Virus record (IMG/VR): IMGVR_UViG_3300029672_000003
Reading direction: 5' to 3' (one strand)
DNA length: 62,525 nt
From: a virus
A program made the position numbers and the translations under genes. Within the stretch, counting starts at the first letter, position 1. The number at the start of each line of letters is the position of its first letter. Shown in pieces: positions 54,764 through 55,325 of the stretch. The notes beneath the pieces were generated by a model. The model was not told where the DNA came from. It made no database searches and was given only the letters and a program-made list of their open reading frames with translations.

Positions 54764-55114
54764 ATGACAATCGGAGATAGGATAAAAAAGCAGAGAGAGC
54801 TTTTAGGTATTTCACAAGTAGAGCTTGCAGAGAAAATGAAAGTTTCAAAGCAAACACTATATAAATATGAAAACAACATTATTACTAATATTCCAAGTGA
54901 CAAAATAGAAATTATTGGGAAAGTTCTTGAAGTTTCTCCATCTTATTTAATGGGTTGGGAAGATAATTTAGAAAACGCACCAGATATTCTTCCAGACCTT
55001 ATGTCGGATAATGAATTGCTAGATAATTTGAAAATGCTAATGGAACTTAGCAAAGAACATCGACAGACTATATTTGACAATATAACCTATTGGCATGAAA
55101 AAGAGGGGCACTAA
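54764..55114 (+). CDS. cI: CI-like XRE-family repressor (no S24 peptidase domain)
   Basis: IGDRIKKQRELLGISQVELAEKMKVSKQTLYKYEN. RBS AGGAAAGGAGG. Confidence 0.85.
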   Translation: MTIGDRIKKQRELLGISQVELAEKMKVSKQTLYKYENNIITNIPSDKIEIIGKVLEVSPSYLMGWEDNLENAPDILPDLMSDNELLDNLKMLMELSKEHRQTIFDNITYWHEKEGH

Positions 55115-55131
55115 ATGCCCCACTTTTTTTT
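55105..55131 (+). terminator. Rho-independent terminator of the repressor gene
   Basis: GGGGCA-CTAAA-TGCCCC followed by AC and T8. Confidence 0.85.
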
Positions 55132-55251
55132 GAATGAAAGTATTGTGTTATATAAAAATTTCAAAAATCGCTCGTTGTCGCACTTAACGACCATTTCAGT
55201 TATTTTTTCCTTGTAAAACGCTGTTTCCTCATTGCAATCTTTTTCCCCCAT
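55111..55251 (-). CDS. 46-aa micro-protein, family member 3 (…DNERFLKFLYNTILSFKKKWGI)
   Basis: RBS GGAGGAG. Its C-terminus is homologous to the 35-aa ORFs at 1250 and 27236. Its stop codon overlaps the cI stop codon (CTAA). Confidence 0.6.
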   Translation of the reverse strand: MGEKDCNEETAFYKEKITEMVVKCDNERFLKFLYNTILSFKKKWGI

Positions 55252-55296
55252 CTTATTCTCCTCCAATCATTCCGCACTTCCGATAGCGATACACAA

Positions 55297-55325
55297 ATTA
55301 TAGAACTTATGTTCGATATCGTCAA
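55297..55325 (-). promoter_or_regulatory. Consensus sigma-A-type promoter for the 46-aa ORF
   Basis: Minus strand TTGACG, 17 nt, TATAAT. CTACAAA/TTTGTAG repeats lie just upstream. Confidence 0.65.

Follow-up and report, generated by a model that had tools for sequence, protein, structure and literature searches.

A micro-protein gene convergent with the SinR-like repressor of a gut Clostridia phage is a predicted LexA-gated antirepressor

We examined a 62,525-nucleotide viral sequence (IMG/VR record IMGVR_UViG_3300029672_000003; the window), and in particular a gene in it for a 46-amino-acid micro-protein, P0001, which converges on the gene for the phage's lysogeny repressor, an XRE/SinR-like protein labelled cI. 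We propose that P0001 is a small antirepressor that resembles AimX or SinI, that is gated by LexA, and that works without arbitrium signalling. This proposal, which includes binding of LexA to the promoter, induction during the SOS response, and binding of the micro-protein to the repressor, seems to us fairly probable. We take the repressor itself to be the target because the promoter of P0001 contains a LexA box, because the repressor has no cleavage domain, and because the type of the peptide's second helix tracks the type of the repressor.

The LexA box, CGAACATAAGTTCT, fills the spacer of the promoter of P0001, and its final T is the first base of the TATAAT element (Table 1). We recognised this palindrome by aligning the DNA upstream of P0001 with that of its relatives: divergent promoter alleles all keep it. 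The 62.5-kb window has no other GAAC-N4-GTTC, and the box is also its best match to CGAACN4GTTCG and its only match to the 14-mer with one mismatch or less. (Some relatives have a second GAAC-N4-GTTC; it lies inside the coding sequence of the tail fibre, so we took it to be due to chance.) The box is present at all 91 close loci, at a constant distance from the ATG. It is also present at 22 of 22 loci with upstream DNA in a group of 23 (L174-L196; L176 ends at a contig edge) whose repressors are 72-74% identical to the window's and whose peptides are roughly 50% identical. Among 149 copies of the locus there are 15 distinct sequences from -35 to -10, and the GAAC and GTTC arms are invariant in all of them, while the central N4 has 10 variants, and about 10 occur for the N4 that separates the -35 element from the box. 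As judged from these alignments, invariant arms around a varying centre are the footprint of a protein-bound palindrome. The LexA box of Firmicutes (Cheo box) has the consensus GAAC-N4-GTTC in B. subtilis, and for clostridia the consensus is GAACnnnnGTT[CT] (PMC4234289); a Lachnospiraceae genome has CGAACATTTGTTCG and related sites 5' of its own lexA gene. The box in the window is probably bound by the LexA of the host.

The original prediction had described the 46-codon open reading frame (ORF), a GGAGGAG ribosome-binding site, and a TTGACG-17-TATAAT promoter, all of which we recovered at the same coordinates; its description of the promoter did not include the box in the spacer. The promoter is of the sigma-70 type and agrees with the consensus at 11 of 12 positions, and its -35 element, spacing, and -10 element are retained in the 15 distinct cores. 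The Shine-Dalgarno core is also maintained among the relatives of P0001, as GGAGGAG, GGAGGAA, or GGGGGA.

The repressor, by its predicted domains, lacks the capacity for RecA-stimulated self-cleavage. A scan of protein families found only helix-turn-helix (HTH) families and no Peptidase_S24 domain. In an AlphaFold 2 model, the repressor has a five-helix HTH domain (residues 1-62), a less confident linker (65-80), and an all-helical tail (helices 83-93 and 97-114). Its closest relative of solved structure is SinR (E = 2e-7 with a profile hidden Markov model, or HMM), and its top match from Foldseek is chain A of the SinR/SinI complex (1b0n_A; 110 columns, 30% identity). The repressor is also similar to AimC from phi106 (9sf2_A; HMM, 8.6e-5) and from BMBtp14 (9iaq_A; HMM, 9.4e-4). 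This similarity in sequence is mainly in the HTH domain and the linker; Foldseek recovers 9sf2_A and 9iaq_D as well.

On its other side, the repressor gene faces a divergent gene for a Cro-like protein. Three copies of GTAACT-N5-AGTTAC in this part of the window (Table 1) are likely to be the repressor's operators: the motif has three matches in the window with at most one mismatch, all of them in the repressor/Cro region, and a count of six matches was reached in none of 100 shuffled sequences. The same search found no copy at the promoter of P0001. The phage is temperate, since it has a tyrosine integrase (31543-32745, minus strand, far from the repressor) and since a relative, L001, lies within a 492-kb host contig. 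We rejected phiCT9441A, which has the nearest repressor among cultured phages, as a model for the locus: it has a different layout and an ImmA-like protease, and it lacks the micro-ORF.

To judge by its substitutions, P0001 is a real gene that is under frame-specific purifying selection. For most pairs of divergent alleles, the ratio of non-synonymous to synonymous divergence (pN/pS) is 0.09-0.4 in the frame of P0001, and it is mostly about 1 or higher in the other two frames. For instance, between the window and L106, pS is 0.40 and pN is 0.04 (7 synonymous and 3 non-synonymous changes, plus a change of stop codon from TAG to TAA), and between the window and L103, pS is 0.79 and pN is 0.12 (the changes include CGA to AGG, which are both arginine).

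P0001 belongs to a large family. A word-index search found homologues in 28 clusters, and 410 representative clusters with E <= 0.001 emerged from an exhaustive profile search; nearly all are 35-85 amino acids long, and none is named. The family consensus is YKEKIIEMV..I.N..FL.FIY....SFKKKWGI, with further types of helix 2, and a few members consist of two or three tandem repeats. The members that adjoin repressors and end in WGI form a broad subfamily. Given the family alignment, AlphaFold 2 models P0001 as a two-helix hairpin (residues 3-23 and 27-44; pLDDT of 86). Pfam, PHROGs, and NCBIfam assign no family to P0001; matches in the ESM Atlas were confined to clusters without names, below 0.9; Foldseek found no match for the 46-residue model; and tblastn found no match for the peptide in 50,697 records of cultured phages. 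We also looked for longer fused forms of the peptide and found none, which is weak evidence. The frame-specific selection, the 410 clusters, and the conserved position of the gene support the suggestion of the original prediction that the peptide acts in its own right, beyond any role in translational coupling.

The window contains three significant members of the family by HMM: P0001 and two 35-residue paralogues, P0002 and P0003, each of which leads into an Ant-class gene. One alternative is that P0001 is decaying: a duplicated leader-Ant cassette would have recombined into the repressor's terminator and left P0001 as a remnant that now has no function. The DNA similarity between P0001 and the leader copies spans only about 65 nt, it reaches a GTG-MGHLV frame that is reminiscent of the start of the Ant genes (MGDLLM), and rare frameshifted or truncated variants of P0001 do occur. 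However, about 110 contigs have an intact ORF, promoter, LexA box, and ribosome-binding site, and neither the low pN/pS of divergent alleles (well below 1) nor the breadth of the WGI-ending subfamily beside repressors would be expected of a remnant. We consider decay to be extremely unlikely.

The peptide and the repressor are also found together in other genomes. In every context that we retrieved, the free-standing members of the family are convergent with a short XRE repressor, at a distance of 0-40 nt, and the repressor faces a Cro-like gene. We saw this convergent pair in the window's group, in L103, L106, L108, L200, L092, L111, and L112, and in 23 of 23 loci of L174-L196. The group L174-L196 was found by way of the repressor alone, and all 23 of its loci have the peptide, with a 4-nt overlap of the stop codons. 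The other flank of the peptide gene varies (tail fibre, endolysin, HicAB, or serine recombinase). This recurrence in unrelated genomes points to the pair being a functional unit.

The second helix of the peptide varies with the repressor, and we distinguish four types. Type A has 116-residue repressors that end in EKEGH, and helix 2 of the peptide ends in FLKFLYNTILSFKKKWGI. Type B has repressors of 120-124 residues, and helix 2 is WLRIIYVFVKNLLE or a variant of it. In type C (the repressors of L092 and L112), helix 2 contains ILRLIYGFVKGGY, and type D (the repressor of L111) has a fourth form. Helix 2 tracks the repressor across all four types. In L082, which is a natural recombinant, helix 1 is that of the window and helix 2 is of type B; the junction is at the turn of the hairpin (CDNE), and the recombinant lies beside a type-B repressor. 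The conserved pairing and the matching of subtypes suggest that the peptide binds the repressor directly.

Several results weigh against an antirepressor of this kind. Co-inheritance of subtypes would arise from adjacency alone. Comparing the peptide to the repressor's C-terminal domain with hhalign gave a probability of 0.05%. A profile search of all chains in the Protein Data Bank (PDB), including the entries for AimX complexes, gave no relevant match to the peptide, and a Pfam scan that included the SinI family found nothing in the peptide or in the repressor's tail. The leader paralogues keep a helix 2 like that of type A even if the resident repressor is of type B, so they are not matched to the resident repressor. 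Finally, five distant pairs (L092, L108, L111, L112, and L200) have no LexA box within 200-300 nt. Since these keep the gene pair, the gating by SOS would be specific to some lineages, and the pairing of peptide and repressor would be older than its SOS wiring. Predictions of the complex (39 aligned sequences for the repressor and 52 for the peptide) scored 0.07, 0.36, and 0.04, and we counted them neither way. We rejected the idea that the peptide copies the repressor's tail, as the hhalign comparison gives it no support from sequence.

Some of these results would also fit an SOS-induced micro-protein that acts on something else, such as LexA or RecA, the Ant, Rha, or BRO proteins, or a host factor, in which case its place next to the repressor would reflect inheritance as a module. 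The leader paralogues directly precede Ant, Rha, or ORF6N genes and do not track the type of the repressor; the sequences of the peptide and the repressor's tail are not similar; and small phage proteins that bind LexA exist (PMC4551915), as gp7 of GIL01 acts on LexA. On the other hand, the tight convergent pairing with XRE genes recurs in unrelated phage backgrounds, helix 2 tracks the repressor over four types, and the junction in L082 is exactly at the turn of the hairpin. The pairs without a LexA box keep the same arrangement, which is a better fit to the repressor as the partner than to LexA. Another target is rather unlikely, and the behaviour of the paralogues lends it some weight. The original prediction had suggested that the peptide modulates the antirepressors, and we found no specific support for that mechanism.

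Another alternative is that the main product of the gene is RNA, so that the repressor is expressed less because of convergent transcription induced by SOS, or because of an antisense RNA, and the ORF is secondary. The genes are convergent, their stop codons overlap, the promoter is strong, and the same idea was once put forward for the aimX transcripts. As the original prediction had noted, the TAG of P0001 (55111-55113, minus strand) and the TAA of the repressor (55112-55114, plus strand) share CTAA. This overlap is kept in all of the type-A pairs that we examined (the 23 of 23 loci above plus L103, L106, L108, and L200). Across repressor types it is not maintained, so the design does not depend on it. 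The stop codons lie within a hairpin, GGGGCA-CTAAA-TGCCCC, whose arms are the final codons of the repressor (EGH and the stop) and of P0001 (WGI and the stop). Because this hairpin is flanked by an A-run and a T-run and folds on both strands (-17 and -15.9 kcal/mol, with z-scores of -3.6 and -4.3; no shuffled sequence equals it), we interpret it as a bidirectional terminator. But the terminator of -17 kcal/mol, with its U-tract, would end transcription no more than about 15 nt from the repressor gene's 3' end; the type-B relatives have a 40-nt gap between the genes and a terminator stem of 11 bp; and the frame-specific selection acts on the protein. In phi106/phiW23, changing the start codon to a stop codon abolished function, and an antisense effect was judged to be inconsequential (bioRxiv 10.1101/2025.11.23.689978). 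We consider an RNA product to be quite improbable. The suggestion in the original prediction of convergent-transcription interference with cI is likewise unlikely, because a bidirectional terminator separates the genes and selection acts on the protein.

If P0001 is a LexA-gated antirepressor, then the switch would work as follows. In the lysogen, host LexA on the Cheo box in the spacer would silence the micro-protein gene, and the SinR-like repressor would hold the promoter on the Cro side via the GTAACT-N5-AGTTAC operators. DNA damage would lead to RecA-stimulated self-cleavage of LexA, and the strong promoter would fire. We infer that the transcript is SOS-induced in this way; it would be a monocistronic mRNA of ~195 nt that ends at the shared terminator. 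The micro-protein would bind the repressor, most likely at the two-helix C-terminal domain through which the repressor self-associates, and the peptide's helix 2 would set the specificity. The capped repressor would stop oligomerising and binding DNA, and the lytic genes would turn on.

The principle behind such a switch is already known, from LexA-gated antirepressors, AimX-AimC, and SinI-SinR, and the locus works like these systems without being a member of any of them. It is not a member of the AimX or SinI systems because the arbitrium genes are missing and because the peptide, in contrast to SinI, has no detectable homology to the tail of its repressor.

The closest parallel is AimX-AimC-AimL (phi106; PDB entries 9sf2 and 9iaq). 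AimX is a helical ORF of 29-80 amino acids that is convergent with aimC and sometimes overlaps it; in Bacillus phages, experiments showed that a heterodimer of AimX and the repressor abolishes DNA binding; a LexA site lies upstream of aimX in phi106; and AimX proteins are described as highly divergent (bioRxiv 10.1101/2025.11.23.689978, Kabel et al.). Similarly, in the window, a small helical ORF is convergent with a short XRE repressor that cannot be cleaved, and the two touch or overlap; on its other side the repressor has a divergent Cro-like gene; a LexA site is 5' of the small ORF, as in the phi106 family; and the repressor has the HTH, linker, and helical oligomerisation domain of AimC. 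Unlike extended arbitrium systems, the window has no aimR or aimP 5' of the small ORF, where it has a tail-fibre gene and a gap of 520 bp, so LexA would be the only gate. (AimR had no match among the large ORFs of the window that were scanned, and the P0001 peptide has no signal sequence.) The peptide also has no detectable sequence similarity to the solved AimX chains; the host is a bacterium of the gut Clostridia/Lachnospiraceae type instead of a Bacillus; the window has two more paralogues of the peptide, in cassettes with Ant-class genes; and the function that we propose here is inferred.

In the SinI-SinR system of Bacillus subtilis (1b0n), SinR, to which the window's repressor is related by sequence and fold, is inactivated when a small helical protein caps the two helices of its C-terminal domain. 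In contrast to the window's peptide, SinI is a homologue of the SinR tail. Also, sinI is upstream of its target in the same orientation, while P0001 is convergent, and SinI is not controlled by LexA.

The same logic, in which the repressor is not cleavable and an SOS box lies on the promoter of an antirepressor that acts in trans, is found for Tum from phage 186, GfoA/GfhA from the Gifsy phages (PMC3121763), and AntC from N15. These LexA-controlled antirepressors of Gram-negative phages are unrelated in sequence, have CTGT-N8-ACAG as their box, and usually have genes that lie far from that of the repressor. They are also larger, at about 90-150 amino acids.

Table 1. Predicted features of the repressor/micro-protein locus and the two leader paralogues, in coordinates of the window.
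Feature	Position	Strand	Details
LexA (Cheo/SOS) box, CGAACATAAGTTCT	55302-55315	minus	fills the P0001 promoter spacer; 1-base overlap with the -10 element
P0001, 46-aa micro-protein gene	55111-55251	minus	ATG start at 55251; product MGEKDCNEETAFYKEKITEMVVKCDNERFLKFLYNTILSFKKKWGI
Ribosome-binding site of P0001, GGAGGAG	55258-55264	minus	6 nt 5' of the ATG
Sigma-70-type promoter of P0001	55297-55325	minus	TTGACG 55320-55325, 17-nt spacer, TATAAT 55297-55302
Candidate 5'-untranslated-region element, TATCGCTATC	55282-55291	minus	just 3' of the P0001 -10 element
Bidirectional intrinsic terminator	55097-55131	both	hairpin 55105-55121; A-run on one side, T-run on the other
XRE/SinR-like lysogeny repressor (cI), 116 aa	54764-55114	plus	HTH_3 match
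Cro-like HTH gene, 68 aa	54414-54620	minus	divergent from the repressor gene
Predicted repressor operators, GTAACT-N5-AGTTAC	54643-54659, 54680-54696		between the divergent repressor/Cro promoters
Third copy of GTAACT-N5-AGTTAC	54406-54422		3' end of the Cro-like gene
Divergent promoter, minus side	54691 to 54664	minus	one of the divergent repressor/Cro promoters
Divergent promoter, plus side	54704-54731	plus	one of the divergent repressor/Cro promoters
P0002, paralogue 1, 35 aa	1250-1357	minus	HMM E = 1.5e-16; overlaps the Ant gene start
P0003, paralogue 2, 35 aa	27236-27343	minus	overlaps the start of a Rha-family gene

We also note the element TATCGCTATC, just past the promoter of P0001. 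Its ATCGCTA core is retained in most promoter alleles (the window, L103, L174, L179, and L181), and not in the allele of L001. It may be a second operator or an element of the 5' untranslated region. A scan of 53800-56000 against Rfam gave no match.

The two leader paralogues were described by the original prediction as homologous to P0001, which holds: P0001 matches P0002 with E = 4e-12 in BLASTP, at 48% identity over 33 residues. The homology thus spans the entire 35-residue ORF and not just its last 20 residues. Comparison of P0002 to P0003 (pS = 0.47, pN = 0.02, pN/pS = 0.05) indicates that both leader copies are real proteins. Each overlaps the start of the Ant-class gene downstream of it (MGDLLM); in agreement with the original prediction, P0001 has no Ant-class gene after it. 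The cassette with P0002 is a ribbon-helix-helix (RHH) gene followed by ORFs of 168, 40, and 35 amino acids and then an Ant gene with BRO-N/ORF6C domains (504-1265). The cassette with P0003 is an RHH gene (RHH_1 on 27581-27793) followed by ORFs of 40 and 35 amino acids and then a Rha-family gene (26577-27251). In one relative, the same cassette head stands before an ORF6N-type gene. These cassettes are similar to immI of P22 (Arc-Ant), in that an RHH gene heads an operon that ends in an Ant-class gene. They differ from immI in that two conserved micro-ORFs (40 and 35 amino acids) lie between the RHH and Ant genes, in that the Ant-class gene is interchangeable (BRO-N/ORF6C, Rha, or ORF6N), and in that an equivalent of Mnt was not identified.

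An ORF of 40-42 amino acids is always found 5' of the 35-residue leader (1354-1476 and 27340-27462, minus strand; in L199, 2376-2504). It is coupled to the leader by an ATGA overlap, and its pattern resembles a helical hairpin (..EHFLRCVWIFTSNL..). We do not count the 40-residue ORFs or the 168-residue protein as members of the family, as their HMM scores (1-7 bits) are not significant. A degenerate fourth copy of the micro-ORF (315-392, minus strand; ..EIEEIQSLAVFLFISNCIRKIKK; HMM E = 0.011) has no start codon and sits 5' of a Rha-family gene that runs off the start of the window (2-274). Directly past the Rha gene of the P0003 cassette is an ORF for a 106-residue protein (26194-26514, minus strand) with a HELCH (HExxH) motif. 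Its similarity to the Peptidase_M78 (ImmA/IrrE) and SprT-like families is below threshold (E about 0.02), and the protein may be a small metalloprotease. In other elements, XRE repressors are substrates of ImmA-type proteases.

The deployment of the peptide in multiple copies is the most original part of the system. The micro-protein might be a portable repressor-capping module that is under three controls, with one LexA-gated copy and two copies in RHH cassettes, and the cassette copies, since they keep the type-A helix 2 even in phages whose own repressor is of type B, might act in trans on the type-A repressors of other prophages. The extra paralogues in the Ant cassettes hint at cross-talk between prophages. 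We consider this extension unlikely; if it were true, the cassette copies would give cross-induction or anti-immunity between gut prophages that share a cell.

Some further observations concern the family. The rare variants of P0001 are P0013, P0014, P0025, P0028-P0030, and L198 2501-2614. Two of the variants have a frameshift within the run of eight A's that precedes WGI. Several others, all on short contigs, break directly past CDNE(RFL) and continue with unrelated sequence; these may be real deletions or assembly joins. A Tn916-like element, L114 (1854-2216, 2501-2743), encodes an 80-residue protein that consists of two tandem repeats of the family, two genes past a 120-residue XRE protein. 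Residues 86-120 of the latter, its final 35, score 17.5 bits against the peptide profile in a test with a single sequence, which is a lead only. This match hints that the fold of the micro-protein can also serve as the tail of a repressor.

As for the surroundings, the 520-bp gap between the tail-fibre gene and the promoter of P0001 (55330-55848) includes the terminator of the late operon (about 55637-55680) and an ORF of 68 amino acids (55400-55606, minus strand) that is seen again in relatives. Other relatives have, in this gap, a gene for 105-138 amino acids on the opposite strand. Since its content differs among relatives, the gap is a variable moron slot. Elsewhere in the window, an Ltp-type surface lipoprotein (3403-4284, minus strand) is likely to be a superinfection-exclusion gene. 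Relatives encode a free-standing protein with the C-terminal domain of Spo0A in their early region (6134-6520 in L001).

The repressors of most temperate phages in gut Clostridia are short and incapable of self-cleavage, and to our knowledge, how phages with such repressors sense DNA damage is largely unknown. The locus that we describe offers a concrete switch, with one LexA box, one gene of 46 codons, and one SinR-like repressor, and it draws attention to a large family of micro-proteins (410 clusters) that is unannotated and has no name in gene callers or databases. If our proposal is confirmed, the principle of AimX and SinI would reach beyond Bacillus and beyond arbitrium signalling. It would also provide a rule for recognising SOS-inducible gut prophages, namely a convergent micro-ORF beside the repressor together with a Cheo box, and it would explain why common prophages of the human gut are induced by antibiotics or genotoxins.

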